Virus record (IMG/VR): IMGVR_UViG_3300045303_000152
Span: 45,753 to 109,752 of that record
Origin: a virus
Direction: 5' to 3' (one strand)
DNA length: 64,000 nucleotides
Shown here one piece after another: positions 24,376-44,696 of this stretch; within the stretch, counting starts at the first letter, position 1; each line of letters opens with the position of its first letter. A program made the position numbers and the translations under genes. A model generated the notes under the pieces. It ran no database searches. It was not told the DNA's origin and saw only the letters and a list, made by a program, of their open reading frames with translations.

Positions 24376-25011
24376 ATGCAAATTATCGAAGGCATACACT
24401 TCCCTCAGCCGGTGCTGGATCACTTGAATGCAATTGCGCCCACGTGGGCGCAAACATTGATTGACCGAGCGTGGATGGCTTACATCACTATGGAGAAAGC
24501 CCTTAACCACGCAGTCGAGCGGAATGAAGTCAAAACCCTGCTCGACATAGGTGCTGACGCCGGCATGATTGATATTCTGCTGGGCGCCACCTCACAATTC
24601 CCCCAACTGACCGACATTTATTTGCTTGACGGCGATGGCACAAGCACGCGCCTCACTGAGAAGTACAGCGCAGAGCAGGTAGCCTGGAACAACGTGCATA
24701 TGGGCGTCGAGCTGGTGAAGGCTAACGTTAGCTCCACCATTGCCGTGCATGCCGTGAAGCCAGACCCGAGCTTGATACTGCCTCAAGCCATGGATGTTAT
24801 AATCAGCCTCAAGTCGTGGGGGCATCACTATCCCGTCGAGGTGTATCTCGAGTTCGTGAAGCATAACTTGGCTGCAACCGGCGTCGTGCTGCTCGACATC
24901 CGCGAAAATACTAACGGCCGCCAAGTGTTAGAGGCTAACGGCTTCAAGGTAGTCGAGTTGATACCTGATAGATCCTCAAAGTGCCAACGTATGTTACTAA
25001 GGCGGAACTGA
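24376..25011 (+). CDS. class I SAM-dependent methyltransferase
   Basis: LLDIGADAG, LLDGD, SLKSWGHHYPV. Confidence 0.85.
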   Translation: MQIIEGIHFPQPVLDHLNAIAPTWAQTLIDRAWMAYITMEKALNHAVERNEVKTLLDIGADAGMIDILLGATSQFPQLTDIYLLDGDGTSTRLTEKYSAEQVAWNNVHMGVELVKANVSSTIAVHAVKPDPSLILPQAMDVIISLKSWGHHYPVEVYLEFVKHNLAATGVVLLDIRENTNGRQVLEANGFKVVELIPDRSSKCQRMLLRRN

Positions 25012-25236: not shown

Positions 25237-25887
25237 ATGGAGCTTGCAGCGATGCGTATCAACTGGACTGAAAAGTCAGTAGAGTATTTGAACCGGCACA
25301 ATAAGCAGGGCGACGATAACTTTGCCCTGTTCGCTAAGCAGCAGATCAGAGCTCAGAAGCGCCTCGACGACATAGCACGGGTTGTCGATGAGTGGAGGCC
25401 AACTCGCTCGCTCGACATCGGGTGCGGGCTGGGCGTGATTGATATCCTACTTGCCGATCGCTATGATCTGGCTCACATTCACTTGCTCGACGGCGACGGC
25501 AGCAGCCCTATTCAGCACGACTATCAGTCTGACATGCAGCCGTGGAATGACGTGTTTGCGGCAGCCGAGCTTGTGCAGAAAAACGTGGGTAAGGAAGTAT
25601 CGGTCTACCCTCATTTGGTAGTGTCAGCGGGTGAGTCCATGGCTTCGATGGCCAAGGAGATTGGCTGGCTCGACATGGTGTGTAGCTTCAAGTCGTGGGG
25701 CGTCCACTATCCCGTCAGCACCTACCTGCAATTCGTGCACGAGGTTTTGCGCCCTGGGGGTTTGCTGGTCATCGACATTCGCGAGGAGCGTGGCGATGGT
25801 GACAAGAACAACCAAGTCGAGCAGGCTGGCTTTCGGCTCGTGAAGCAGTTGGACGCGCGAGTTCGCACGTTCAGGAGAGGCATATGA
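25237..25887 (+). CDS. class I SAM-dependent methyltransferase
   Basis: LDIGCGLG, LLDGD, SFKSWGVHYPV, LRPGG. Confidence 0.88.
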   Translation: MELAAMRINWTEKSVEYLNRHNKQGDDNFALFAKQQIRAQKRLDDIARVVDEWRPTRSLDIGCGLGVIDILLADRYDLAHIHLLDGDGSSPIQHDYQSDMQPWNDVFAAAELVQKNVGKEVSVYPHLVVSAGESMASMAKEIGWLDMVCSFKSWGVHYPVSTYLQFVHEVLRPGGLLVIDIREERGDGDKNNQVEQAGFRLVKQLDARVRTFRRGI

Positions 25888-26774
25888 AAGTCGGCTTCTT
25901 TTGCTCAAAGCGCCCTCGCTGCATTGAGTTCGCAGAGCTGTTTCGATTTGGCGTGCAGCGGTGCGGCGACGAGTTAGCTATCAGACCGGTGCTGAAAGCT
26001 CATGGCGATCCTCATGAGGTTGATGGGGAAATAGTACCTGATGTGGATGTAGCGATCATCAATGCAATCCTGCACCGCAAAGCTTTCAAGACCATGTACG
26101 ATGCCGGCATTCCAGTTGTGTACATCGACAAGGCTTATAATCGGAATTGGGACTGGCGGCGTGTCAGCATTGGCGCGCACCAGCCAACGCACTACCTAGG
26201 CTTTAGAGGCAAGCGTGATGGACGCCGAGTACAGTTCGGGTGGGAACCTGCAACGTGGCGCCGCAAAGGTTCGCACGTGTTGCTAGCGTGGTCAGATAAC
26301 CGCGATCATGAGTGGCGCGGCTGGCCCCCGCCGGAAGTTCATGTCAGACCTGTCATTATCGGCTTGCAGCATTTCACCGACCGCAAACTCTACTATGGCG
26401 CCAAGCCGAACTATCATCCAAGTGCTTCAATCACTAGCCTACTCGACATTCGCAATCTAACCCCTGATGCACAAATCTCTGATTACTTTACGGGTTGTCA
26501 TGCGTTGGTAACTCCCGGTACCAGTGTGTGCTTGCAGGCTATGTTGGTAGGTATTCCTACCATCGTGCTCGCTGATGCCATAGTGCGCAGCATATCCTCT
26601 ACATGCATTTGCCAGATCGAAAGCCCGTACCTAGCAACCCAACATGAGCGCATTCAGCTACTCAATGATCTTGCTTACTGTCAGTGGCATAAGGGGGAGT
26701 TTGCCGATGGCACAGCTTGGTTCGATATTCGTGACCAGTTAGAGGAAGGGGTAGGAGTCAATGTCAAATCGTAG
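25884..26774 (+). CDS. glycosyltransferase-like protein (GT-B, resembling KpsS/KpsC capsule-type)
   Basis: 'YIDKAY', 'ALVTPGTSVCLQAMLVGIP', 'LAYCQW..GE..GTAW'; paralog of 28244 and 60554. Confidence 0.6.
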   Translation: MKVGFFCSKRPRCIEFAELFRFGVQRCGDELAIRPVLKAHGDPHEVDGEIVPDVDVAIINAILHRKAFKTMYDAGIPVVYIDKAYNRNWDWRRVSIGAHQPTHYLGFRGKRDGRRVQFGWEPATWRRKGSHVLLAWSDNRDHEWRGWPPPEVHVRPVIIGLQHFTDRKLYYGAKPNYHPSASITSLLDIRNLTPDAQISDYFTGCHALVTPGTSVCLQAMLVGIPTIVLADAIVRSISSTCICQIESPYLATQHERIQLLNDLAYCQWHKGEFADGTAWFDIRDQLEEGVGVNVKS

Positions 26775-27551
26775 CGGCGCCTACTTGCTGTCAGAAACCT
26801 ATAACTTGCAAGCTGCAAGCGAGGGTATGTTGGTAGTGCCGAAGCTCAGGCGACGGCAGCCTAAGCAGACGATGCTGCCTAAAGATCCGCCATTGGTTAG
26901 GCAGTTTCGCTGGACTACCCCCGAAAGCGTGCTGGCTCGTATCAAGGAACTCGCGAGCCAGCCGCTCCGTACAGCACCAACTGGGTTTGCGCTCAACTAC
27001 AAAAGGCGCGACCAATGCCAAAGGGTGATCCCATGAAGTACATTCTGATTTGGTATATCTTACAAGCGAGTGGGTCAGCTATCGCATCAGGTGGCATGAC
27101 TTCTGGCTCAGCCGAGTTCAACGATCAAAAGAGCTGCGAGCTTGCGGCCGAGCAAATCAAGTCGTGGAATGACAAGGCCAAAACTGCGTGCATGGAAAAG
27201 GGTGAGTAAGGAGTGGGGTGATGAATACCAAGTTTGTGAAGCATCTGAAAGTAGGGGATCGCGTTCGGGTACAAGACCCTGAAGGCGTAGGCAAGGTGAC
27301 ATACGTTGGACGTTCTATAATGTTCACGGCGTCGGGCGGGTGCTTTAGAATAGATGCTGACTTGGTAGCCGGCCCAAATGCCGGCAAATCGGTGTGGGAT
27401 CAGCACCTGCCCGGCGATGCTGAAATCGAAGTCTACCCAGTTCACTAGGAGTAACGAACATGATGACGTATGCGCAAGGTTGGATCATCATCGGTGAGCT
27501 TGCCTTTGTCATCTTTCTAATCATTTACAACATTGGTATCGGAGGCCCACA

Positions 27552-28247
27552 ATGATTACGGTAACGCAAACCGAGCTCTATGCTCATGTGTGCAGTGGGG
27601 TTCATGGGGCGAAGTTGTCGACCTACCCATTCACGCACATCAGCATGAGGAACTTCCTGCCGCAGTTTCTGTACGGGCGGCTTATCAATTCACTGCCGGC
27701 GCCTGAGCTCTATACCCCGTTGAGCGATACTCGCGCGCAATTCGTATTCACGCCCGAGAACCAAGCGAAGCTGCCGGCCGATACGGTCGGAGTTTGGATG
27801 GACCTGCTCAAAGTGTTCAATGAGATTGGGTTCAAACAGACCATGTTCAACAAGCTGGCCAGCGGGTTGAAGCATCGCTTTGGCGATAAGACCCTCGACG
27901 ACATCGACTGCGACATGGATATCAGGTTGATGCGTGACACGGCTGGCTATGGCATTCTGCCTCACTGCGATACCATGAAGAAGATAATCACGATGCAAAT
28001 CTACCTGCCGGCCACCGATCGCTATATGGATAGCGGTACGGTCATGTACAAGAAAGACGTAGTCGCTGATGGTGAGGAATACGTTGAGGTAGTGCGCTTT
28101 CCCTTCATACCGAATTTCAGCTATGCATTCGTCGTCAACAATAAGGAGCCTCACCAAAGCTGGCACGGGGTAGAAACTCTGCCACCTGATTTCCCCGGCG
28201 CGCGCAACAGTCTGCTTGTGATGTTCAATGCTGTAGGTGGTAAATGA
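27552..28247 (+). CDS. 2OG-Fe(II) oxygenase
   Basis: HxD ('PHCD'), distal His ('SWHGV'), RxS ('RNSL'). Confidence 0.85.
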   Translation: MITVTQTELYAHVCSGVHGAKLSTYPFTHISMRNFLPQFLYGRLINSLPAPELYTPLSDTRAQFVFTPENQAKLPADTVGVWMDLLKVFNEIGFKQTMFNKLASGLKHRFGDKTLDDIDCDMDIRLMRDTAGYGILPHCDTMKKIITMQIYLPATDRYMDSGTVMYKKDVVADGEEYVEVVRFPFIPNFSYAFVVNNKEPHQSWHGVETLPPDFPGARNSLLVMFNAVGGK

Positions 28248-29116
28248 AATTCGCCTATCATCTGCGAGGCGAACGCCCTCGACAGAAGCAACTGTGTACT
28301 GCATTGCAAGCCGGCGCTGCCAAGCATGGGGATGAGGTAATCCCCATCGTTGGCTACCTAGGCCCAGAACCTAACGTCGATGGCGTGATACTGCTAGGCG
28401 TCAGCGGCCTTCACCACAGAATAAGCAACCGCATGGTGTACGATGCTTATCTCGCCAAGGGTAAGCGAACGATGCTGTTCGACAAGGGCTATGTGCGGAA
28501 GGACAGTAGCGACCGCGACTACTTGCGGGTGTGCGTCGATGGGTTCCAGCCACTCAGCTACTTCATGAACACAACCAGACCCAATGACAGATTTAAGCAG
28601 TTGGGTATCAAGCTAAGGCCCTACGCCACCAAAGGCGACTACTTCTTGCTGGATGGTGTCAGTCAGAAGTACTGCGCTTGGCATGGCATCGACAGTCACC
28701 TTGCCTGGGGCTTGAGCGTAATTGAGAAGATCAGGGCACACAGCAACCGCCCCATCGTTTACCGGCTTAAGAAGTCAGCGGCGAACTACAAGGCTCTGCG
28801 CGACATGCTGCGTACGACCATATCGAAGCGTGATCTGGCTGACGATATGAAACGCGCCATGATCGTCATCAGCCACGGCGGCAATCTGGGTTGGGATGCC
28901 ATGATGAATGGTCGCGCTCACTTTGCTATCGGCCCGAGCATTGCTAGAAGGGTAAGCGAAACCGACTGGGATAAAATTCACACGCCGTATGTACCTAGTG
29001 AGGCAGAGCGCTATCAGTTGATGTGCAATGTTGCGTACTGTCAATGGACCGTGGCCGAGCTAGCGAGCGGTGAGGGATGGGCAGTCATCAACCAGCAGTT
29101 AGAGGAAACCAAATGA
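28244..29116 (+). CDS. glycosyltransferase-like protein (paralog of 25884)
   Basis: 'FDKGY', 'VISHGGNLGWDAMMNG', 'VAYCQWTVAELASGEGW'. Confidence 0.6.
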   Translation: MKFAYHLRGERPRQKQLCTALQAGAAKHGDEVIPIVGYLGPEPNVDGVILLGVSGLHHRISNRMVYDAYLAKGKRTMLFDKGYVRKDSSDRDYLRVCVDGFQPLSYFMNTTRPNDRFKQLGIKLRPYATKGDYFLLDGVSQKYCAWHGIDSHLAWGLSVIEKIRAHSNRPIVYRLKKSAANYKALRDMLRTTISKRDLADDMKRAMIVISHGGNLGWDAMMNGRAHFAIGPSIARRVSETDWDKIHTPYVPSEAERYQLMCNVAYCQWTVAELASGEGWAVINQQLEETK

Positions 29117-29394
29117 GAGTAGAACTGTGGCGGGGCATTTATAAGTTGCAGGAAGAAATGGGTGACCTACAGCAGCTACTAGGCAAGCTTGGGGCATTTC
29201 CAAGCGAGCACCCTAGCGGTGAGGATACTGTAACTAAGGTATGGGAAGAGGTTGCTGATGTTCAGGCAGCCCTTGTTTACTTTAGGCGGCACAATGCCCC
29301 GCCCACTCAAGAAACCTATATTGTGAAACGGATGACACATAAGCTTGAGTTGTTCGAAACGTGGAACTTGAGCGGGGTAAAACCAAATGAGTGA
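29113..29394 (+). CDS. MazG-like nucleotide pyrophosphohydrolase
   Basis: 'KLQEEMGDL...EEVADV' acidic metal motif. Confidence 0.65.
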   Translation: MRVELWRGIYKLQEEMGDLQQLLGKLGAFPSEHPSGEDTVTKVWEEVADVQAALVYFRRHNAPPTQETYIVKRMTHKLELFETWNLSGVKPNE

Positions 29395-32759: not shown

Positions 32760-33395
32760 ATGAACGTTTATGACGAACTGACTGGCGCCGTGAAACTCAG
32801 TCAGAAGAAGGGCGAAGCCGATCAGGCGCACTTGAGGAAACTGGTCGAAAAGGCTAGCGAGCTATCTGACAAAGCGTGGGAAGGCTTGTCGGGCAAGGCT
32901 CAGACTTGGGTGAACTCGGCAGTCGATGCCGTGCAGGCCCAAGAGGACATTCCCGAACCGGCCGGCTTTGGCCAGCCCGACGATGACGACGAGGCCGAAG
33001 AGGAGCAAGAGACTGTTGAAGCTGCCGACGATGACGAAGACGCACCCCCAAGCAAAGGAGCTAAGACTGTGAAAGCCAAGGAAGCGAAGAAGGCCAAGGG
33101 CAAGCCGGCGAAGGCTGCCAAGGCTGCCAAGGGCAATGGCAAGGCAAAGGTTGCTGCCAAGAAGAAAGAGGGTGGCGCCAAGCGTGGCCGGGCAGCTCGG
33201 CTGTTCAAAGATGATCAGCGCATCACCGTGCTCAGCAAGAAGAACCCCAAGCGCGAGGGCAGCGGCGGCTACGAGCGTTTCGAGCTCTACTCCACCGGCA
33301 AGAAGGGCATGACTGTCAAGCAAGCGCTCGATGCCGGCGTCACCAGTGGCGACCTGAAGTGGGACAGCGAGCACAAGTTCATCAAGATCGACTGA
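32760..33395 (+). CDS. acidic/basic protein with C-terminal 'NPKR...D-W-D' domain (paralog of 1169..1519)
   Basis: RITVL..NPKR...RF..Y...TV..A..AG.T..D..WD. Confidence 0.75.
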   Translation: MNVYDELTGAVKLSQKKGEADQAHLRKLVEKASELSDKAWEGLSGKAQTWVNSAVDAVQAQEDIPEPAGFGQPDDDDEAEEEQETVEAADDDEDAPPSKGAKTVKAKEAKKAKGKPAKAAKAAKGNGKAKVAAKKKEGGAKRGRAARLFKDDQRITVLSKKNPKREGSGGYERFELYSTGKKGMTVKQALDAGVTSGDLKWDSEHKFIKID

Positions 33396-33470
33396 GCCTA
33401 CACAGCTAGCTCTGCCTACACATGGTGGCTTCATCTCCGGGTGAAGCCATCACTGTATGAAGGACACAAG

Positions 33471-34328
33471 ATGATAGAACTGCCCCCAAAAAACGTTGCA
33501 GCCCTATGCAAGTTCGTGATCGAGCGGCAGCGTATCTACACTCGTCGGCTTGCCGGCAAGTCGAAGCCTTGGACCGACGACCCGATATTGCGGCAATATA
33601 GGTTCTGCAACATTTACCGTGAGCAGGATAAGGTCACTAAGTGGATCGCCTACAACTGGCGCAATCCGAACAACATGCACACAGACTTGTGGTTTGCCAT
33701 GTTGGTCGCCCGCTACATCAACGAGCCCGGTACACTCAAGTTGCTACCGTTTCCCTTGCCTTGGAACCGGCTCAACTTTCACGATGCCGTGAGTGCTCGC
33801 AAGAAGGCTGGGCTGACGGTATACAATGCGGCTTACATCATTTCGACGGGCGGGCAATCTGTACCCAAGCACGAGTACCTGGGCAACTTCTTTGATAAGT
33901 TTTGGTGGATGCGAAAGCAAATTCGCCCACGCGAAGGCGATACCCTGGCCAATTTCAGCGAGCGGCTGGTGGCGGTGCAGGGCATGGGCAAGTTCTTTAG
34001 CGGGCAGATCATCGCTGACGTAAAGTATGCTGAAGGCAGTACCTTGCGCAAAGCCGACGATTGGTGGACATTTGCTGTGTCAGGCCCCGGCTCGAGACGC
34101 GGCCTCAATCGGGTTTGCAACAACCCCGTCGATCAGGGTTGGAATGAGGGAGATTGGCATGCGCACCTCAGTACGCTACGTCGTGCGGTCAATAAGGAGA
34201 TCACAACGAAGGGTTTGGAGAAGCTGCATGCACAGGATCTACAAAATTCGCTATGTGAGTTTGACAAGTATCTGCGAGTCCAAAAAGGTGAAGGCCGCCC
34301 TAAGCAAAAGTACGATGGTATGGCGTAG
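33471..34328 (+). CDS. 5-hmdU DNA kinase family (aGPT-Pplase clade 1 / HMUDK helical domain)
   Basis: 'ERQRIY...PWTDDPILRQYRFCNIYREQDKVT', 'GPGSRRGL', 'QNSLCEFDKYLR'. Confidence 0.85.
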   Translation: MIELPPKNVAALCKFVIERQRIYTRRLAGKSKPWTDDPILRQYRFCNIYREQDKVTKWIAYNWRNPNNMHTDLWFAMLVARYINEPGTLKLLPFPLPWNRLNFHDAVSARKKAGLTVYNAAYIISTGGQSVPKHEYLGNFFDKFWWMRKQIRPREGDTLANFSERLVAVQGMGKFFSGQIIADVKYAEGSTLRKADDWWTFAVSGPGSRRGLNRVCNNPVDQGWNEGDWHAHLSTLRRAVNKEITTKGLEKLHAQDLQNSLCEFDKYLRVQKGEGRPKQKYDGMA

Positions 34329-34417
34329 CTTTTCGATTGAGGATCGGACATGCGCCATCGGCGCGGTGTTCTGGCTGTGGTGTTCGATCGGCTACTTGGC
34401 TGGTCAAGTGGGGTAGA

Positions 34418-35278
34418 ATGGACCTGATCGTAATACCTACTTGGGGGCGGGCGAAGCGGCAGCAAACTTTGGCTGCCCTCGAGAAAACAGATGTTGTGTA
34501 TACCCACAAAGTAGTTCTACTTGTGCGGCCTGAGGAAGTGGCAAAGTACCGTCACCCAAGCTATAAAGGCAAACGCATTAAGTCAGCGACTATGAAAGAG
34601 ATTGACGTGGTGGCAGTGCCAGAAAACTGCGAAGGTATAAGTAAGAAGCGAGCCTATGCCTTGACCACGCTGGCAAAGCAGTACGACGCCAAGTATCTAA
34701 TGATGCTCGATGATGACCTGTCATTCTGTCATCGGCCTGATTTGCGTAAGGCAGATATGCCCTATATCAACGCTGACTCTTACGGCATGCACTGGATGAT
34801 CGAAACTATCACCGAGCAATTAGAAAAAGGGTATGCTCATGTCGGGTTGATTTCTAGGCAGGCCAACCGCAAGCTAGGTGTTAGGTGGCAGAAACCCGGT
34901 CGATTGATGAATGCCTATGCCTACAATGTGCCAATAATTTCTCAGCTAATACGCAAGCACAAATTAGTGCTAGGTCGCTTGCAGTTCATGGAAGACTTTG
35001 ATTTGACGTTACAGCTATTGCGCCTTGGTTATCCCAATCGCATCAGTTGCCAATTCGCCTGGACCACAACATCGAACCTAAATGGAGGTTGTAGCAGCTA
35101 TCGTACCGCAGAAGCACAAGCTGAAGCCGCGCGCAAGCTGGCCAAGCTGCACAAGCCTTTTGTGCAAACGGTAGAAAAGCAGGCCAAGACCTGGAAGAAT
35201 TCGTTGACTACCCGCGTCGATGTGCGGGTAGCGTGGAAGAAAGCCTATGAGGCTAGTAAGGGAGGTAAACGTGGCTGA
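34418..35278 (+). CDS. TET/JBP-associated-type glycosyltransferase (GT-A)
   Basis: 'IPTWGR', 'GISKKR', 'MLDDDL', 'MEDFDLTLQLLRLG', 'GGCSSYRT'. Confidence 0.8.
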   Translation: MDLIVIPTWGRAKRQQTLAALEKTDVVYTHKVVLLVRPEEVAKYRHPSYKGKRIKSATMKEIDVVAVPENCEGISKKRAYALTTLAKQYDAKYLMMLDDDLSFCHRPDLRKADMPYINADSYGMHWMIETITEQLEKGYAHVGLISRQANRKLGVRWQKPGRLMNAYAYNVPIISQLIRKHKLVLGRLQFMEDFDLTLQLLRLGYPNRISCQFAWTTTSNLNGGCSSYRTAEAQAEAARKLAKLHKPFVQTVEKQAKTWKNSLTTRVDVRVAWKKAYEASKGGKRG

Positions 35279-35895
35279 TACTTCTAAGGAACCCACCCTA
35301 AAGGACTTCACCTTGGGGGAGCTGATGGTACTGCACAACCAACAGCTAATTGCGCTGGCGCTGGCTAAGCTTTTGGCAGATCAAAACTTATTAGGAACGG
35401 CAGGTGCGCTTAGAGCTGGAATACAAACTGCACCAAGCAAGTAGGGTATAAACCAATGGCAGATACAAAGGACTTTTCGCCGGCTGAGCAGGCGATACTA
35501 CACAATCAGCAACTTCTCATGCTAGGAGTGGCTAGGCTTTTGGTAGAGGTGGACTGCAACTTACTGGCAGCTAAAATCCAAAGAGAGTTCATAACCGCGC
35601 CAGATTTTGTGGCGCTGGACGATACAGCTCGAGAGTTCGCGTTAAAGGGAGACTAGCAATGAGCTTGAAGGATGATCTCATAAAACTGCGCGACCAGCTA
35701 GCCACAGATTATCATCATTGTACCGGCTTGCGCACTATAGCTGCTGATGATCTCGTGCAAACATTAGGTGAGGTGGCGGCAGATATGCTGCCCGAGTTTG
35801 CTGCACTCGATGAAGCAGCGCAAGAGTTCGCATTGAATGAGGCGTGTCCAGAAGGCACCATTATAAGTTGTAGCCCCGTTCGCCTAGTAGAGTAA
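35271..35895 (+). other. three short tandem, partially paralogous CDSs (35271-35444, 35456-35656, 35659-35895)
   Basis: Shared 'KDF...LHNQQL' and 'F.ALD..A.EFAL' segments. Confidence 0.7.
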
Positions 35896-35916
35896 CCAGT
35901 AACCGGAGTACCCCAA

Positions 35917-36576
35917 ATGAAGCACGCTGATATCTATGGAAATGCTAGGTTAGCCGGCAGCGTTAAGAGATACCACGCCCAACCCTATTTGACGACGCAA
36001 ACCGTGGGCGAGCACACGTGGCAAATCTTTCGCATTTACACAACCATTTGGGGTGAAATTCCGCCCCATGTGACGACGGCGATTATCTGGCACGATGCCG
36101 GCGAGCTGTTCGCGGGCGATACTCCCTACCCAGCCAAAAAGGCTTCGCCGGGGTTGCGTGGGTTGCTCAAAACTTTGGAAATTGATGGCATCGAGCAAAT
36201 GGGTGGGCCGTGGAACCCCGACGGCAAGCTCACGACCCTTGAGCAAATCAAGATCAAGATTTGCGATAACCTCGACATGCTTGAGCACGGCTTGGTCGAA
36301 ATGGCGATGGGCAATCGCCTTATGGAGCCTGTCACCAACGTGACTTATGCGTGGCTCATTGAAACCCTCGACTGGGATAATGATGCGATACCTCACCTCG
36401 ATAAAGACTATGCCATTCGTTACCTGCTCAAAGTCCGTAAAGCGGCGCGAACGTATGGTATACCCAACGAGGTTTTCATCATCGAGAAAAATATACCCCT
36501 CGCTGCTCAGTTGACCAAGCTGGCCGCAGTAACCCAACCGCCAGGAACCCCCGTAGTTTTACCAGTCAACATCTAG
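35917..36576 (+). CDS. HD-domain phosphohydrolase (YfbR-like)
   Basis: 'VKRYH...QTVGEHT', 'HDAGE..AGD.PYPAK', 'KICD.LD'. Confidence 0.85.
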   Translation: MKHADIYGNARLAGSVKRYHAQPYLTTQTVGEHTWQIFRIYTTIWGEIPPHVTTAIIWHDAGELFAGDTPYPAKKASPGLRGLLKTLEIDGIEQMGGPWNPDGKLTTLEQIKIKICDNLDMLEHGLVEMAMGNRLMEPVTNVTYAWLIETLDWDNDAIPHLDKDYAIRYLLKVRKAARTYGIPNEVFIIEKNIPLAAQLTKLAAVTQPPGTPVVLPVNI

Positions 36577-36608
36577 CACGCATCAACCCATTCAATGGAG
36601 CATAGACA

Positions 36609-37112
36609 GTGGATATCATCAAGGCAACGGGTGGCCACCCAAATCAATGGACGTATAGAGACGCACCCGGCTTGATATGGATAAACACGGTCGCTCTTAA
36701 ATACGAGGGCAATGCTTGTCTTAAATGGCCGTACAGCATGGTTAAGGGAGGGTACGGGCAGCTAACTGTGAATGGTAAGTGTTGGAAAGCTAATAGATTT
36801 TTATGCATCTTAGCCTATGGAGAACCCCCGACTAACAAACATCAAGCAGCGCATACGTGCAAAACCAAGGGATGTATGACCAAGAAACATTTAGGTTGGA
36901 AAACTCCAGCCCAAAACCAGCGTGATCGAATTAAAGATGGTACTGATAGTAAGGGAGTACGCAATGGTAGAGCCAAACTAACTTTGCGCAACGTAAAGGA
37001 GATTAGACAAGCTAAGGGCAAAGTATCGCAAAATCGGCTTGCGGTACTTTTTGGCATTCACCAGACGACAGTAAGTAAAATACAGCGCAACCAACTTTGG
37101 CAAGGAGGGTAG
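36609..37112 (+). CDS. HNH homing endonuclease
   Basis: 'CLKW...GYG', 'AAHTC...C...HL.W.T..QN..D', C-terminal HTH. Confidence 0.85.
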   Translation: MDIIKATGGHPNQWTYRDAPGLIWINTVALKYEGNACLKWPYSMVKGGYGQLTVNGKCWKANRFLCILAYGEPPTNKHQAAHTCKTKGCMTKKHLGWKTPAQNQRDRIKDGTDSKGVRNGRAKLTLRNVKEIRQAKGKVSQNRLAVLFGIHQTTVSKIQRNQLWQGG

Positions 37113-37117
37113 TACCT

Positions 37118-38248
37118 ATGGATGTAATAAGAAGTACCAATGTTAATGAGGCGTATCTCAAAGGGTTGCACCTAATTGCAACCAAAGGCGTGCTCGAGAA
37201 ATCGCGCGCCGGCGACGTACTGGTAGTCCCCAATCCGGTCGTCACGCAATACAATTACCCAATGGAGCGGGTGCTGTTCGACGTGACCCGTGATGCTAAC
37301 CCCTGGTTTCATTTGATGGAAGCATTGTGGATGTTGATGGGCCGCAACGATGCCACATGGCTGGACCGCTTCGTCAAGGACTACTCGAAGCGGTTCGCTG
37401 AGGATGATGGTACCCAGTGGGGTGCCTATGGCCAGCGGTGGCGCAGTCACTTTCTTTCGACCAGCATGGAGTCATATGAGGAAGGCCCTATTGACCCGCT
37501 ATTTGACCAACTGTCGGAGGTGGTCAGGTTATTGCACAAGAACCCCAACGACCGGCGCGTGGTGCTACAGATGTGGGACCCCGAGTACGACCTGGGCAAA
37601 AACACGAAGGATGTACCGTGCAACCTTTGCGTGCTGCCGCGCGTGGTGAACAAAAAGCTCGACATCACCGTCTTCTGTCGCAGCAACGATGCCATCTGGG
37701 GTGCGTACGGCAGCAACGCCGTTCACTTCAGCATTTTGCAGGAATATCTTGCCGCGCGGTTGGGTGTAGGAATAGGCACGTATTACCAGATTAGCAACAA
37801 CTTTCACGCTTATAAGAACGTGTTCGAGGCTAAGACCAAGCACCTGATTATCGACCCTGCTGGACCAACCGGGCCGGCGCCCACGCCGATAGGTAAGAGT
37901 GAGTTCGTGGTGGCGCCTGCTTGGTACAGGCCAGCTGATACGTTGCAATGCCCCTACTACTTCCACACGGCGAAGCCAACGCCCATCGTGACTGCCGGCG
38001 ACACGTTCGACGATGACTTGATCCAGTTCTTCAGCGGCGATCACCCGCCGATCAAGTACTATCACAACAGCTTTTTCTCTGAGATCGCCATACCGATGTA
38101 CTACAGCTTCAAGGCGTGGCGAGATAAGGATTTGACTGGCGCCTTGCAGTGGCTTACGCGCATGCCTGAGCCAAATGGCGATTGGCGCCTTGCATGTCAA
38201 CAGTGGTATGATCGGCGCCGTTATGCTGGAACTAAGGTTCAAAGTTGA
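37118..38248 (+). CDS. thymidylate-synthase homolog, probable dUMP hydroxymethyltransferase
   Basis: 'DRRVV', catalytic 'DVPCN', 'CRSND', Asn at the dUMP-specificity position ('GAYGSN'), 'NFHAY'; adjacent to the 5-hmdU kinase gene. Confidence 0.85.
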   Translation: MDVIRSTNVNEAYLKGLHLIATKGVLEKSRAGDVLVVPNPVVTQYNYPMERVLFDVTRDANPWFHLMEALWMLMGRNDATWLDRFVKDYSKRFAEDDGTQWGAYGQRWRSHFLSTSMESYEEGPIDPLFDQLSEVVRLLHKNPNDRRVVLQMWDPEYDLGKNTKDVPCNLCVLPRVVNKKLDITVFCRSNDAIWGAYGSNAVHFSILQEYLAARLGVGIGTYYQISNNFHAYKNVFEAKTKHLIIDPAGPTGPAPTPIGKSEFVVAPAWYRPADTLQCPYYFHTAKPTPIVTAGDTFDDDLIQFFSGDHPPIKYYHNSFFSEIAIPMYYSFKAWRDKDLTGALQWLTRMPEPNGDWRLACQQWYDRRRYAGTKVQS

Positions 38249-38250
38249 AC
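38237..38250. promoter_or_regulatory. palindrome GTTCAANNTTGAAC, copy 5
   Basis: GGTTCAAAGTTGAACC overlapping the TS stop. Confidence 0.6.
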
Positions 38251-38277
38251 CGGGGCTCTAACTCAGGAGACAGGGTG

Positions 38278-38562
38278 ATGACCCGAAATAATACTATCTT
38301 ACTGTGCCTAGCGATCAACGTTGTAGTGAGCCTAATAGTGCTAGGCGGTTGCGATCCTCGACTGTGGCCTGATCCTACCAAGGAGAAGCAAGAGAAGCAG
38401 GCGCAAGTAGTTGCCGGCCGTGACAACGAGGGCTTGAAGATACGGGTGGACGACCTTGACCATCGGGCTAGGGATGAGGCAACGGCGGTTGACAAACGCT
38501 TTAGGGAACTAGAGCGTCGCATCGAGCGATTGGAACAGGGCCTGCCCGCAGTGCGTCAATAG
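38278..38562 (+). CDS. probable lipoprotein with coiled coil
   Basis: Hydrophobic leader ending LGGC. Confidence 0.55.
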   Translation: MTRNNTILLCLAINVVVSLIVLGGCDPRLWPDPTKEKQEKQAQVVAGRDNEGLKIRVDDLDHRARDEATAVDKRFRELERRIERLEQGLPAVRQ

Positions 38563-38575
38563 TTCAAAATTGAAC
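38562..38575. promoter_or_regulatory. palindrome GTTCAANNTTGAAC, copy 6
   Basis: GTTCAAAATTGAAC starting at the stop codon. Confidence 0.65.
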
Positions 38576-38588
38576 GAGGGTTCTAGTT

Positions 38589-38933
38589 ATGATAACCAGA
38601 AGAAAGCTGCTTTACTGGCTCGGCCTAGCGCCGGCTGCTTCAGTTCTGCCAGTCGACAAGTTCGGCTCGGCTAACGTGCTGTTCGATGGACCAACTGAGA
38701 ATATTGGCAAAACTATCCAATACGTTCAATACGTCGACCCTACTAAGTGGACTATACCTGAGGATTGGAATAAGGTTTACATTGAGTGCGTAGGTTACGG
38801 GGGTGGAAATGGTGGCGGTGGGGGTAATGCAACGAGAATGGAAATACGGCGTGGGTCAGGCGAAAGCACCACGACTGGTATTGGCGGTGCAGGTAGAAAG
38901 TTAGCTAAGGGAGAACCCGATGTCAGCGAATGA
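38589..38933 (+). CDS. Tat-signal-like glycine-rich protein
   Basis: MITRRKLL leader; 'WTIP...VYIECVGYGGG'. Confidence 0.55.
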   Translation: MITRRKLLYWLGLAPAASVLPVDKFGSANVLFDGPTENIGKTIQYVQYVDPTKWTIPEDWNKVYIECVGYGGGNGGGGGNATRMEIRRGSGESTTTGIGGAGRKLAKGEPDVSE

Positions 38934-39393
38934 TAGGCAGGTAGGTGGGAGCCACTACAAAGGCAGTTACGAGCATTGGGATTTTGTGACCAACGTTGGT
39001 ATGTCTTATTTACCAGCGCAAGTTTGCAAGTACCTGAAGCGCTGGCGTGACAAGAACGGCCGTGAGGACGTCGAAAAGGCTGGGCACTTCCTCGACAAAA
39101 TGATTGAGGTGGCACCTATTCTAATTTTGCAAAGGCCAAATATTCCCGCTGACTACATCAATAGTGAGGTTGATAGCTACTTGCACGCCAATGGCATTAA
39201 AGGTGAAGAAGCGGCCATCACTTCTATACTTGCGCATTGGTCTACCAAAAGCCATCTGCAAATGGCCAAGTGCTACATCGAGACCTTGGTAATGAAGATA
39301 CCCCAAGGGCACGCTACCATTAAGCTTGGTGGAGGCGGCGGCCACGCTTCACGGCCCGACAGCGATGAGAGCGTACATGGAAATAGATCGTGA
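38920..39393 (+). CDS. DUF3310 (SaV-like) protein
   Basis: 'QVGGSHY', 'KYLKRWRDKNGREDVEKA'. Confidence 0.85.
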   Translation: MSANDRQVGGSHYKGSYEHWDFVTNVGMSYLPAQVCKYLKRWRDKNGREDVEKAGHFLDKMIEVAPILILQRPNIPADYINSEVDSYLHANGIKGEEAAITSILAHWSTKSHLQMAKCYIETLVMKIPQGHATIKLGGGGGHASRPDSDESVHGNRS

Positions 39394-39871
39394 GGCATTG
39401 CTGGCGGCAATGACCTACAACAAAAAGTCTGGTATTTGCCGCTGGCGAACCACTCGTAAAGGAGTGGAGAAAGTTAATCAAGTGGCTGGCTATGTCGATA
39501 AGCAAGGTAAGCGCTGGATACGATTTAGCAATGGTAGGTATAGATCTACTCATCTTATTTGGTTTTACGTGACTGGTACTTGGCCTCCAGTACTTGTCGA
39601 TCATGAGGATCTAAACGTGTCAAACGATAAATGGAGAAACTTACGTTTAGCAACCCATGCGCAAAACCATTGTAACCTAAGAAAGAGTAAGCGTAACACC
39701 TCGGGTTACAAAGGGGTATCCTTTTGTAAGAAGAAAAATAAGTTTGAGGTACGTATCAATTTTGAGGGGAAATGCCACCGCCTGGGTTATTACAAAACTG
39801 CTAGGCTAGGTCACGCCGTTTACAAGAAAGCTTCGCAACGTTATCATGGTGCGTATGGGAGGATAAGCTAA
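39377..39871 (+). CDS. HNH endonuclease with AP2-like C-terminus
   Basis: 'VDHED.N..ND...NLRLAT..QN', 'NTSGYKGV'. Confidence 0.88.
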   Translation: MEIDREALLAAMTYNKKSGICRWRTTRKGVEKVNQVAGYVDKQGKRWIRFSNGRYRSTHLIWFYVTGTWPPVLVDHEDLNVSNDKWRNLRLATHAQNHCNLRKSKRNTSGYKGVSFCKKKNKFEVRINFEGKCHRLGYYKTARLGHAVYKKASQRYHGAYGRIS

Positions 39872-40967: not shown

Positions 40968-42015
40968 ATGATGAGCCCCGATGATGTAGCACGCGCATGT
41001 TCCCATGCTCGCAGCCTTATACTCGCTCGCTACCCCACAGCTCGGGCACAGTCGGGGCTTATTATGACGTCTCACGTTCTTTGGATGCTCGATCAAATAG
41101 CCGAGTTCATGAGCGTAACGCCACCTCGCCGTGAGAAAGCTATGCGCTGGCTCGGGTTTGTGCAGGGCTATCTTTGGACGGCAACCTACTGCACCATTGA
41201 AGACTTGAAGAAGGTCAACCGACCTAGCGATGGAGCTGAGTGATGACCCCGTTGAGTAGGCTACGAGGTGATGGCTGGATGGTCGCGGTCCATAACGACT
41301 ACTGGCTTAATGGCAAGTTCATGACGTTCTGGCTATTTACTCATCCAACGGGAGTCTTTGTCAAAGGTGAGGCAGAAACAGATGAAGAAGCGCTTCGCGA
41401 GTGCGAGCGTAAGGCAACAGCTATCGGAGTTTAACAATGCCCATCAATCGACGCGGCGTGCATATCAACTGGCATGGTAAGTACCTCAATGAAGAGGAAA
41501 TTGCGGCTGACATGATAGCAAAGATCAGAGCCAACCCTGAGGGCGTCAAGGTTTGGCTTGATCCCATTAGTTGGGAACTGCCTTATAGCGACTATAAGGT
41601 ACTGCCTCCGCATGCTGGCGCCTTGATGAACGTCGGTATGCAAGTTCGGAATTACTATGGGCTTTGGCATCCTGAATGCCCGTATACCAAAACCGGCGGG
41701 GCTGATTTAGAAGTTAAGGATGGTATCATCACCGACCCAATGTTCCCTGACAACCTATCAATGCGCATAATTGACCGGGTGCGCAAGGTATTCGCGGATG
41801 AGGCCAAGCAATCGAAAGAGTTGCACATTGCCGATAGTCACCCCCAACGATCAGGCTTTGCTTGGTGCGGCGAAACATTGCTAGATAGCAGTAAGCGAAC
41901 CTTTCGCAACGTTGAGGAAGCTGCTCAAATCGGCCGTAGTGGTATGGATAGTTTCATTGTTTGCACTCGTTGCCTTGAACGGGTTACAGCAGCGCTACGT
42001 CACGGGCACAAGTAA
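40968..42015 (+). other. hypothetical CDSs (40968-41243, 41240-41434, 41437-42015)
   Basis: Collinear ORFs; the first has the recurring phage motif 'EKAMRWLGFVQG'. Confidence 0.6.
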
Positions 42016-44696
42016 TGAGCTTCTTTCCTATACCTGAAAAGGTAAGCAAACAAACAGCGGCTAAAGCCGACATTAAGATGCTCCATACCCTGGAGTGTCA
42101 AGCCTGCCCGTTGTCGCAGATCAAGGGTAACAAACACCCTGACATGCCGGCAACGGGCGTCAGTAACCCGATGGTATATGCATTGGGCGAGGCCCCCGGC
42201 AAGGATGAGGATATACGCGGCCGGCAGTTCGTAGGCAAAAGCGGCCAACTGCTTAGAGACTTGCTCATTGACATTATAGGCACCGATTACAAAAACTACT
42301 TTCGTTGGAACAACACTGTTCGCACCCGACCGATTGACAATGCCACACCAACTTGGCAGAGCATCGAGTGCTGCCGGCCTAGCATCGTAAGGGATATCGA
42401 ACAAAGCAAGCCGAAGGCTATATTTGGATTTGGCAACATACCGCTATCGTGGCTCACGGGGTATTCTGGTATCTATGCCTATCGCGGTCGCTGCATGCCC
42501 GTTAAAGTAGGCACGCACGTTTGCTGGTACTTCCCCATGCTGCATCCAGCGGCGATACTGCATGGCGTCAAAGGCTATGACCCCGACGACGATGACGATG
42601 GCAGCGATTACAATCAATCCGATCGCGAGTTCATCAATGAGGACCATCGCATACTCAAGTTCGATCTCATTAAAGCCCTGGCGTTGCTCGACAAGCTCGG
42701 GCCACCTATGATCCATTCAGCTGACGATGCCTTGAGCGGCATTGATGTGATGGATAAGTGTGACGATCAAGCCCTCGATGTCATTGAAGAACAGTTGAAG
42801 CTGTACGGCTCAAAGGTAGTAATCGGCATCGACTATGAGACCGACGCACTGCGACCGTACAATCCCGACCGGCGAATACTAACCGCCGCCGTCAGCGATG
42901 GGCTCGGTGCGATCACCATTCCATTCGATCACCCTGAAGCGAGCTGGACCCCCAAGCAGCGTGAACGCCTCGACCGCATTTGGATCAACTTCCTCACCAC
43001 GGCCACAGCTATCAAAGCGGTACACAACCTGCAATTCGAGCTGGAGTGGACTGGCCATCGGTTCGCCGGCGACTTGCTCAAAGCCGGTAGGTGGGAATGT
43101 ACGATGGTTCAAGCGTCGATCATCGACCATCGCTATAAGGGCACCAAGCCGAGCCCACTGTCGTTAGAGTTTCTGGTGCTGCAACACTTCGGCTTCAACC
43201 TGAAGAAGCTCGCAGCCGTCGAGCGGCACAACCTGATAAACACGCCGTTGCCTCACGTGCTCCAATACAATGGATTGGATGCCAAGTATCATGCGTTGCT
43301 GTTCAAGCGTCAGCACTCGATTATAAGGAATGAGAACCTACTCGTTGCCTACAAGCTCGCCAGCCGCCGCGTGCCCACGTTGGTTATGAGCCAGCTCAAA
43401 GGTATTCCTGTATCACAGAAGCAAGTCGAGGTGCTGCACGCCAAGTACGCAGATCGTATAGAAACAACCTCAAAGCAGATCGCCGTCAACCGCACCGTCA
43501 AGCGGTTCAAGAAAGAGTACAAATTCGACTTCGACCCCGGCAAGCATTGCGTGAAGCTGTTTCACGACATGCTGCAACGTAAGGAGTGCGAGGTATTCGA
43601 CAAGAAGAAACGTGATGCCAAAACTTGGTGGGTGGGTGATAAGAAAGTCAACAAGATAAGCTGCGATGAAGATGTGCTCAAGCAAATTGGCGGCGAGCTG
43701 CCAGAGCTAATCATTCGCTTGCGTAAGGCACAAAAGCGCATGGGTACTTACATTCTACCCATGCGTGAGGGCAGCGGAATACTTTGGCCCGGTAGCTATC
43801 TCCATCCGGTTTACAATCATACCTTCACCGATACCGGCCGGCTGAGCGCTGAAGAGCCCAACGTTCAAAACTACCCCAAGCGTGATGGCGAGGCCAAGGA
43901 GGTTCGCAAGGGCATCGTCGCTCGCAAAGGCCGTGTGATTGTCGCCATCGACTACGGGCAAATAGAAGCTCGCGTCATCGCCATGTACACGAAGGATAAA
44001 ACCTTCGTCAAAGCGTTGTGGGAAGACTACGACGTTCATATGGAGTGGGCCGAGCGCGTAGCCTATGCGATGCCAGGGCTAGTCGGCGGCAAGCAGTACC
44101 TTAAAGACAAACCCACGATGAAAAAGTTTCGCACGGGCATCAAAAACGAATGGACATTCCCACTGTTTTTCGGGGCCACGCTTGAGTCCGTTTGCACCTA
44201 CCTGACCGAAGGCAACGATCACGACTGCAAGGTAGAGCCCGGTCAACTCAAAAAGGTTCATGCCGATTTCTGGAAGCAGTTCGGCGGCGTGAAGGAATGG
44301 CAGGAGACCCTGCGCGACTTTTATGAGGAGCATGGGTATGTAGAAACCTTCACCGGCCGGCGCCGTCACGGGCCTATGAGCTTCAACAAGCTAATCAATG
44401 CACCCGTGCAAGGGTTCACTGCCGAGCTAGTGATGGACGGTATGTGTAGGTTAAGCGAAACAAATGACCCGCTGCTGCCCCCTGAAATTCAAATCCACGA
44501 TGACTTGACGTGGGTAAGCGTGCCCGAAAACAGGGTGGATGAATTGGCTGACAAGGCGCTAGATGTGCTGCTCAACCCGCCCGCGCCGTTCATCGAGCAT
44601 GTCAACGTACCGATCACAATGGAGCTTAGCGTAGGCAAGAACTGGCTGGAAATGACCGACATAGGCGTGTTCAAATCAAACGAGTGGAAGCAATGA
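42015..44696 (+). CDS. polA: family A DNA polymerase with N-terminal uracil-DNA-glycosylase-like domain and 3'-5' exonuclease
   Basis: GEAPG..ED..G..FVG.SG; IDYET; HNLQFE; YNGLDA; TGRLS..PN.QN; DYGQIEAR; NAPVQG; IHDD. Confidence 0.93.
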   Translation: MSFFPIPEKVSKQTAAKADIKMLHTLECQACPLSQIKGNKHPDMPATGVSNPMVYALGEAPGKDEDIRGRQFVGKSGQLLRDLLIDIIGTDYKNYFRWNNTVRTRPIDNATPTWQSIECCRPSIVRDIEQSKPKAIFGFGNIPLSWLTGYSGIYAYRGRCMPVKVGTHVCWYFPMLHPAAILHGVKGYDPDDDDDGSDYNQSDREFINEDHRILKFDLIKALALLDKLGPPMIHSADDALSGIDVMDKCDDQALDVIEEQLKLYGSKVVIGIDYETDALRPYNPDRRILTAAVSDGLGAITIPFDHPEASWTPKQRERLDRIWINFLTTATAIKAVHNLQFELEWTGHRFAGDLLKAGRWECTMVQASIIDHRYKGTKPSPLSLEFLVLQHFGFNLKKLAAVERHNLINTPLPHVLQYNGLDAKYHALLFKRQHSIIRNENLLVAYKLASRRVPTLVMSQLKGIPVSQKQVEVLHAKYADRIETTSKQIAVNRTVKRFKKEYKFDFDPGKHCVKLFHDMLQRKECEVFDKKKRDAKTWWVGDKKVNKISCDEDVLKQIGGELPELIIRLRKAQKRMGTYILPMREGSGILWPGSYLHPVYNHTFTDTGRLSAEEPNVQNYPKRDGEAKEVRKGIVARKGRVIVAIDYGQIEARVIAMYTKDKTFVKALWEDYDVHMEWAERVAYAMPGLVGGKQYLKDKPTMKKFRTGIKNEWTFPLFFGATLESVCTYLTEGNDHDCKVEPGQLKKVHADFWKQFGGVKEWQETLRDFYEEHGYVETFTGRRRHGPMSFNKLINAPVQGFTAELVMDGMCRLSETNDPLLPPEIQIHDDLTWVSVPENRVDELADKALDVLLNPPAPFIEHVNVPITMELSVGKNWLEMTDIGVFKSNEWKQ

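Follow-up and report, generated by a model that had tools for sequence, protein, structure and literature searches.

We analyzed a 64,000-nucleotide stretch of viral DNA, referred to here as the window, which spans positions 45753-109752 of the 109,752-bp linear IMG/VR virus record IMGVR_UViG_3300045303_000152 (completeness estimate 85%), and which contains a thymidine modification cluster at 33471-39393. We consider it probable, at roughly 60%, that this cluster directs a kinase-independent replacement of thymidine followed by glycosylation, which would yield DNA carrying glycosylated 5-hydroxymethyldeoxyuridine (glycosyl-hmdU, a base-J-like nucleotide) without phosphorylation. The initial annotation, made from the sequence alone, had already proposed a thymidine hypermodification cluster at this place, and the cluster was confirmed, with a uracil-specific thymidylate synthase (TS) homolog, a TAGT-type GT-A glycosyltransferase, and an HD hydrolase. 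That annotation had further paired a 5-hmdU DNA kinase with the glycosyltransferase, and this pairing was not supported, as the domain of the supposed kinase-family gene is PF18723, with no Walker A motif and an all-alpha model. Pfam and PHROG scans recovered all 5 genes named in it, each on the + strand and close to where it had been placed:

33471-34328, + strand: PF18723 HMUDK_hel (formerly aGPT-Pplase1) protein, Pfam E 1.4e-43; alternative GTG start at 33441
34418-35278, + strand: TAGT-family GT-A glycosyltransferase (286 aa from the ATG), PF20691 and phrog_842; open reading frame (ORF) called from TTG 34337
35917-36576, + strand: HD-domain YfbR-like 5'-deoxynucleotidase, PF12917 5.7e-6, 26.6 bits (cut-off 25.9)
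37118-38248, + strand: TS-family enzyme, predicted dUMP 5-hydroxymethylase, PF00303 5e-22 and phrog_5131 1e-101; ORF called from TTG 37097
38920-39393, + strand: DUF3310-like protein, PF11753 6.6e-5, 23.3 bits (just below the 24-bit cut-off), and phrog_5839 2e-29

The cluster is placed inside a + strand replication block of a tailed phage that includes primase-like and sigma-like genes, the modification cluster, a clamp-like gene, a UDG-exo-PolA fusion, and a clamp loader. A DNA-level search of a phage collection matched only 80-90-bp TS fragments and returned no close relative.

Identity of the PF18723 protein

The protein encoded at 33471-34328 matched PF18723 with 149.7 bits (cut-off 25), residues 21-283 aligning with profile positions 6-277 of 281, and was 32% identical to gp55 of phage M6 and 29% identical to gp19 of phage PhiJL001. 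A tblastn search of the 110-kb record with M6 gp55 gave a match at 1e-37. The Walker A motif, [AG]xxxxGK[ST], was not found in the protein read from the alternative start (33441-34328), and an AlphaFold (AF2) model built with 80 homologs (pLDDT 95.4) consisted of helices only, with zero strands. Because it has no Walker A motif, is all-alpha in the model, and is homologous to M6 gp55 rather than to gp54, we do not regard this protein as a kinase; on its modeled fold, it is a helical DNA-glycosylase-like partner, a homolog of M6 gp55 and not of the kinase gp54. The candidate role of P-loop kinase was ruled out, as the protein has neither the Walker A motif nor the alpha/beta fold of P-loop NTPases.

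The model was compared with PDB representatives by a VIA-align search, and Foldseek and a PDB sequence search were also run. We assigned the fold from VIA because this wide search alone resolved it, with zero Foldseek matches against PDB at E<=0.001 and no meaningful match in the PDB sequence search. All of the top 23 VIA matches belonged to the helix-hairpin-helix (HhH) DNA glycosylase superfamily, and unrelated folds scored below Z 4.5. Matches included QNG1/DUF2419 (Z 10.3, root mean square deviation [rmsd] 5.6, 232 aa aligned), the amino acid:DNA transferase (AADT) gp46 of PaMx11 (Z 9.7, rmsd 4.3, 220 aa aligned), and other HhH glycosylases at Z 8-9.4, such as Mag1 (9.4), Ogg (9.2), and EndoIII (8.4). 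On this model, the PF18723 protein is an HhH DNA-glycosylase-fold paralog of AADTs. With the TS homolog it makes up an invariant core pair, and as a tentative role we favor binding or flipping of hmdU in newly made DNA.

Pfam itself carries the kinase label, naming PF18723 "5-hmdU DNA kinase, helical domain," and GenBank labels on orthologs of the 33471-34328 protein vary between "aGPT-Pplase1 domain-containing" and "5-hmdU DNA kinase helical domain-containing." The kinase that has been proven biochemically in M6 is gp54, a P-loop protein of 187 aa (PMC8989533 Table 1); in Pfam, gp54 matches PF18748 and gp55 matches PF18723. Product was still formed in vitro from the M6 enzymes without gp55, with gp54 and gp51 both needed (PMC8989533). 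The name of PF18723 probably comes from SP10 gp186, a kinase N-domain fused to a PF18723-type domain and the sole such fusion (Lee 2018, PMC5889632, Table 3). In the same table, M6 gp51 appears as PPlase1 and gp55 as PPlase2, whereas PMC8989533 Table 1 and current Pfam give gp51 as clade 2 (AADT) and gp55 as PF18723; the gp51 and gp55 labels thus appear swapped in PMC5889632 Table 3. A match to PF18723 does not imply a 5-hmdU DNA kinase, and predictions of a product that start from this label are wrong.

Search for a kinase, an amino acid:DNA transferase, and other partners

We searched the whole 110-kb record for the enzymes that would define other known modification routes. Matches at E<=1 were absent for PF18748 (P-loop 5-hmdU DNA kinase), PF18724 (AADT, aGPT-Pplase2), PF18757 (Nmad5), and PF12851 (Tet_JBP), and tblastn with M6 gp51-gp54 gave zero matches on the record. 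The initial annotation had recognized no AADT in the window, and this now extends to the full record. PF18748 was likewise not found in 25 IMG/VR records carrying TAGT relatives, including 10 that were >=90% complete and 4 with terminal repeats, or in the complete genomes of PhiJL001 and MW202897; the positive controls M6 (1e-19) and Rhizobium phage RHph_I65 (1e-11) were both recovered. The Walker A ORFs found in the window encode a UvrD helicase, a clamp loader, RecA, DnaB, and an SbcC-like protein, all of them replication or repair ATPases. The ORF at 32760-33395, which occupies the position of M6 gp54, was considered as a hidden kinase and discarded, being rich in K, A, and E and without similarity to gp54. 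Ribonucleotide reductase (RNR) and dGTP diphosphohydrolase were not found in the record by tblastn with PhiJL001, M6, and RHph queries.

These searches bear on the product that had been proposed from the kinase-glycosyltransferase pairing, in which a 5-hmdU DNA kinase phosphorylates hmdU and the glycosyltransferase acts with or after it, yielding sugar-phospho-methyl-dU or a mixture of phosphorylated and glycosylated bases. The word "kinase" in the Pfam name, the fusion of the SP10 domain to a true kinase, the 85% completeness of the record, and the existence of phosphate-containing glycosylated thymidines in SP-15, YerA41, and Carin-5 all speak for such a product, but those 3 phages have different gene sets, the PF18723 protein is all-alpha and without a P-loop, M6 gp55 was dispensable in vitro for phosphorylation and transfer while gp54 was needed, and PF18748 was missing here, in the 25 relatives, and in the complete genomes although the controls worked. 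We consider this product highly improbable. Because no P-loop kinase was found, sugar-phospho-methyl-dU is left without an enzymatic basis, and it is simpler to assume that hmdU is glycosylated directly.

The TS homolog and nucleotide-pool genes

A single TS homolog was identified in the record, 44-45% identical to M6 gp58 (44%), PhiJL001 gp24, and the "pyrimidine hmase" of MW202897, and it shares the PCN and GAYG(S/A)N motifs with M6 gp58. HMMER alignments to solved structures placed C175 (PCN) at the position of Escherichia coli ThyA C146, D198 (RSND) at that of D169, with Asp retained, and N207 (GAYGSN) at that of N177. The Asn at the specificity position noted in the initial annotation was borne out, as GAYGSN aligned on the PFN of thymidylate synthase, whereas the CMP hydroxymethylase MilA has Asp there. 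N177 sets uracil vs cytosine specificity, and D169N marks 5-hydroxy-dCMP synthases (PMC13326640). D172 of the TS homolog occupies the position of ThyA L143, 3 residues ahead of the catalytic Cys, an arrangement also seen in the DVAC motif of MilA; the residue at L143 correlates with a methyl vs hydroxymethyl product, a relationship that is a correlation only (PMC13326640). CMP hydroxymethylases gave the best PDB matches, and the TS profile was left unmatched over its C-terminal third. Based on the active-site signatures, the hydroxymethylase matches in PDB, and the orthology to the M6-family enzyme, we predict that the TS homolog is a dUMP hydroxymethylase making hmdUMP.

The HD gene is syntenic with M6 gp59 and PhiJL001 gp25, and its product would deplete dTMP or other competing dNMPs. 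The DUF3310 gene is syntenic with M6 gp61 and PhiJL001 gp26. The T7 nucleotide kinase gp1.7 matches DUF3310 at 4.5e-23, and the DUF3310 protein of the cluster may act as a nucleotide kinase for hmdUMP; because BLASTP gave zero pairwise similarity between this protein and T7 gp1.7, the idea derives from the Pfam family only.

The TAGT glycosyltransferase

The 34418-35278 protein matched PF20691 with E 2e-14 and 54.4 bits (cut-off 27.5) and phrog_842 at 5e-37, and it was the only TAGT found in the record. Its start is likely the ATG at 34418, giving 286 aa; homologs were 280-290 aa long, all with PF20691. In the DDD motif, D125 and D126 were invariant and D127 nearly invariant among 28 homologs. 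Phage GT-A DNA glycosyltransferases structurally resemble JGT, the base-J glucosyltransferase of trypanosomes, and often adjoin ThyS. The literature places JGT with GT-A enzymes of the TAGT kind, and the JGT/TAGT prediction is reportedly that of Iyer et al. in 2013. The family also includes the DNA glucosyltransferase of T6 (PMC13390438). From its characterized family members and its synteny with the TS homolog, the 34418-35278 protein is a predicted hmdU-DNA glycosyltransferase.

Co-occurrence and spread of the module

An IMG/VR scan with a TAGT alignment yielded 415 confirmed loci, and the best 80 were examined by local tblastn. Among these best 80, a PF18723 gene was identified at 73 loci and a TS homolog at 74, mostly <=3 kb from the TAGT gene, and kinase, AADT, and Nmad5 were each found at 0 of the 80. 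In the reciprocal direction, a PF18723 alignment recovered at least 590 IMG/VR loci, and 80 of them were retained. The TS homolog was present at 70 of these 80, usually immediately downstream, and a P-loop kinase was detected at 25, a TAGT at 22, and an AADT at 7, with kinase and TAGT never together (0/80, one-sided Fisher p = 4.8e-5). The absence of any TAGT-kinase co-occurrence across the 160 loci also counts against joint action of a kinase and the glycosyltransferase. At 23 of the 80 PF18723 loci, a TS homolog, mostly with HD and DUF3310 genes, was found, and kinase, AADT, and TAGT all went undetected within 10 kb (loci with TS only include L088-L091, L096, L099, L100, and L103-L106); these 23 represent either plain hmdU phages or a third, unrecognized tailoring branch.

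In a PF18723 tree from a quick maximum-likelihood IQ-TREE run, TAGT-linked and kinase-linked proteins interleave, and well-supported branches force at least 7 and at least 8 label changes, respectively. The stable element is thus the PF18723-TS core, whose partner has changed repeatedly, and TAGT and the P-loop kinase (with AADT) are alternative, mutually exclusive tailoring branches on it. This either/or arrangement makes the role of PF18723 a testable question.

A hydroxymethylase with PF18723 and TAGT and without a kinase is a widespread, conserved module in uncultured phages. The pairing put forward in the initial annotation is also not unusual, and the novelty of a kinase combined with a glycosyltransferase fails: the cluster joins a module that is widespread and whose co-located genes were already noted in pelagiphages (PMC9599517). 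The module is biochemically uncharacterized as to its product, with none reported for PF18723/TS/TAGT in the literature searched. Uncultured phages and the cultured PhiJL001 with the kinase-less module probably make glycosylated hydroxymethyluracil, a bacterial-virus counterpart of base J. DNA of this kind would resist restriction enzymes and hamper sequencing.

Proposed pathway and alternative roles

In the proposed pathway, the TS homolog would convert dUMP to 5-hydroxymethyl-dUMP, as suggested by its active-site signatures and its orthology to the M6 enzyme, while the HD 5'-deoxynucleotidase would reduce competition from dTMP, with the DUF3310 protein as a possible nucleotide kinase. The UDG-PolA replicase would then incorporate hmdU into DNA from hmdUTP. 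After replication, the single TAGT would move a sugar from a host nucleoside diphosphate (NDP)-sugar to the 5-hydroxymethyl group and so form base-J-like glycosyl-hmdU.

Several points weigh against this pathway. The T6 member of the TAGT family adds the second glucose and not the first, so that direct action on hmdU is not guaranteed, and which sugar is used, how much of the DNA is modified, and whether the glycosyltransferase targets DNA are deduced from family and synteny. Matches for HD and DUF3310 were marginal, and no dCMP deaminase was found in the record by tblastn with PhiJL001, M6, and RHph queries. Because the record is a linear fragment estimated to be 85% complete, a kinase gene lying far from the cluster is formally possible. 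Finally, the conserved Cys of PF18723 hints at a chemistry of its own that could alter the final product.

The glycosyltransferase might also act off the DNA, for example, on host cell-envelope glycans or on protein, and virion DNA would then contain plain hmdU or T. GT-A enzymes are diverse in function and this clade is without an assay, but the gene is tightly linked to the TS homolog and PF18723 in the replication block at 73-74 of the best 80 TAGT loci, the family holds proven DNA glycosyltransferases, and with no TET, hmdU is the only evident acceptor. We regard off-DNA action as improbable.

The conserved Cys leads to another alternative, in which PF18723 is a catalytic AADT paralog whose Cys attacks C6 of hmdU or glycosyl-hmdU, so that the final base is not simple glycosyl-hmdU; part of the hmdU could, for example, become thymine or a different 5-substituted uracil, and TAGT would modify what is left. 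In a profile-profile comparison of PF18723 with AADTs, the near-invariant C272 (LCEFDKY) aligned with the catalytic Cys247 (ETVLCKYKS) and D193 with an invariant AADT Asp, but the match was weak (probability 7%, E 0.005). Such a role agrees with the match by structure to PaMx11 gp46 (Z 9.7 over 220 aa) and with the finding that PF18723 accompanies the TS homolog irrespective of which tailoring branch is present, the 23 TS-only loci among them. Set against these are the lack of a leaving group without a kinase and the fact that M6 gp55 had no detected role in vitro; fusions to PolA and to Prim-Pol/helicase suit a DNA-binding module equally. On balance, a final base shaped by a catalytic PF18723 protein seems unlikely. 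The wider proposal, that PF18723 is an active, Cys-dependent AADT paralog and accompanies phage dUMP hydroxymethylases as their universal core partner, working on hmdU of nascent DNA independently of a kinase, is doubtful as well, if slightly less so. If it were true, part of the hmdU could be turned back to thymine, or flipped hmdU could be passed to interchangeable tailoring enzymes, and the TAGT-type module would yield a product or pattern other than simple base J.

The PF18723 family comprises 4007 clusters (50% identity) at E<=1e-3. Long members from other organisms and viruses (P0148, P0176, P0185, P0200, P0216, and P0243) are fusions to replication domains, with a family A polymerase (PolA), Prim-Pol plus AAA_25 helicase, and a 5'-3' exonuclease as partners. 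These fusions place the domain at the replication fork and not with a kinase, which points to a replisome-linked role.

Comparison with known systems

We compared the glycosyl-hmdU pathway proposed for the window with known systems. The Alphaproteobacteria phage PhiJL001 and the HTVC023P-type pelagiphages carry the same gene set and order beside PolA (PF18723, TAGT, TS, HD, and DUF3310), with no P-loop kinase, although the proteins are just 29-45% identical. In PhiJL001 (AY576273, Mesyanzhinovviridae), these are gp19 (PF18723), gp22 (TAGT, 2.7e-53), gp23 (Nmad5), gp24 (TS), gp25 (HD), gp26 (DUF3310), and gp28 (PolA), and in HTVC023P-type pelagiphages the region was described as TS, aG/PT-PPlase1, 5'-deoxynucleotidase, and "beta-glucosyl-HMC-alpha-glucosyltransferase" (PMC9599517). 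PhiJL001 has Nmad5, dCMP deaminase, and RNR, none of which was found in the record of the window, whereas the window cluster has 2 inserted HNH genes and a lineage-specific glycosyltransferase-like/methyltransferase-like block upstream.

The phages M6, YuA, PaMx11, ViI, and PhiW-14 (Lee 2018, 2021) have a backbone of TS homolog, PF18723, HD, DUF3310, and PolA that is orthologous to that of the window, and they modify hmdU after replication, as is predicted here. The M6-type clusters encode a P-loop kinase, an AADT, and pyridoxal phosphate (PLP), radical S-adenosylmethionine (rSAM), and flavin adenine dinucleotide (FAD) tailoring enzymes, in place of which the window cluster has a TAGT; O-glycosylation is predicted here, in contrast to the displacement of phosphate by an amine. 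The end product predicted for the window is of the same type as base J of kinetoplastids (JBP1/2 and JGT), a glycosyl-oxymethyl-uracil formed by a GT-A enzyme of the TAGT/JGT kind. However, base J starts with a TET/JBP dioxygenase acting on T in DNA, whereas in the window, with no Tet_JBP match, hydroxymethyluracil would come from the TS homolog at the nucleotide level before replication.

The logic of a TS-family hydroxymethylase before replication and a DNA glycosyltransferase after it is shared with the glucosyl-hydroxymethylcytosine of T-even phages, and the T6 enzyme belongs to the same Pfam family. The modified base of T-even phages is cytosine, in contrast to the uracil predicted for the window from Asn, and not Asp, at the specificity position, and the window has a single glycosyltransferase and the extra PF18723 partner. 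Clusters of 5mYOX/TET with GT-A enzymes (Burke 2021; Pyle 2024; T-dioxygenases 2026) also use GT-A enzymes on 5-hydroxymethylpyrimidines, often beside ThyS, but the window cluster is without a dioxygenase or methyltransferase, and its acceptor would be made before replication.

Neighboring genes and lineage-specific insertions

Other features identified in and around the cluster were as follows:

25884-29116, + strand: lineage-specific accessory block with paralogs at 25884-26774 and 28244-29116 and unassigned ORFs between them
29077-29394, + strand: "MazG-like" ORF, phrog_4856 2.8e-4 only
32760-33395: K/A/E-rich protein directly upstream of the PF18723 gene, with a C-terminal match to PhiJL001 gp18
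36609-37112, + strand: HNH homing-type endonuclease between the HD gene and the TS homolog, phrog_59/1872 1e-17
39326-39871, + strand: second HNH endonuclease (HNH_3), PF13392 1.6e-7
42015-44696, + strand: UDG-domain/3'-5' exonuclease/family A DNA polymerase fusion, PF03167 5e-16, PF01612, and PF00476 3e-44

The fusion at 42015-44696 is a replicative PolA with an N-terminal UDG-superfamily domain (PF03167), a further glycosylase-like module tied to replication in a phage for which thymine replacement is predicted. The 2 HNH genes are outside the pathway, and the second is a mobile element. Two indels set the window apart from a 94-98% identical IMG/VR relative (compare L005/L086), in which both are missing, namely, the ~510-bp HNH gene at 36609-37112 and a ~270-bp MazG-like stretch. 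In L005, a 94% identical relative, this HNH gene is missing and the TS homolog lies directly against the HD gene. The 94-98% identical relative also differs from the window in the length of small ORFs, both in the TAGT-HD interval and in the one separating TS from DUF3310.

The initial annotation had placed a MazG-like gene at 29113 and assigned it, with the HD enzyme, to the removal of dTMP/dTTP. The corresponding ORF (29077-29394) has no Pfam match even at E<=1, and it lies in the ~270-bp stretch missing in the close relatives L005/L086, where the flanking genes abut. MazG was rejected as a conserved component of the pathway.

The paralogs at 25884-26774 and 28244-29116 are 27% identical (9e-28), have zero family matches, and have just 4 homologs in 5.8 billion proteins; the block itself was present only in the closest relative. 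An AF2 model of moderate confidence (pLDDT 79.6) showed a two-Rossmann architecture, with beta-Kdo transferases as the best full-length matches (KpsC, Z 9.0 over 226 aa; WbbB, Z 8.7 over 241 aa). In YerA41 and Carin-5, phages with hypermodified T, Kdo-transferase-like glycosyltransferases were likewise reported beside the polymerase (PMC12686479). Speculatively, the accessory block may elaborate or extend a glycan in this lineage. Within it, the ORF at 27552-28247 had no Pfam or PHROG support. Upstream of the first Kdo-like paralog, 2 further paralogous ORFs (24376-25011 and 25237-25887, ~35% identical) gave sub-threshold matches to class I S-adenosylmethionine (SAM)-methyltransferases (E ~1e-3).

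The match of the 32760-33395 protein to PhiJL001 gp18 involves a C-terminal domain of ~55 aa that corresponds to the C-terminus of gp18. The protein was matched in 28 of the fetched loci, and a second copy of its C-terminal domain was identified at 1352-1510, near the start of the window.

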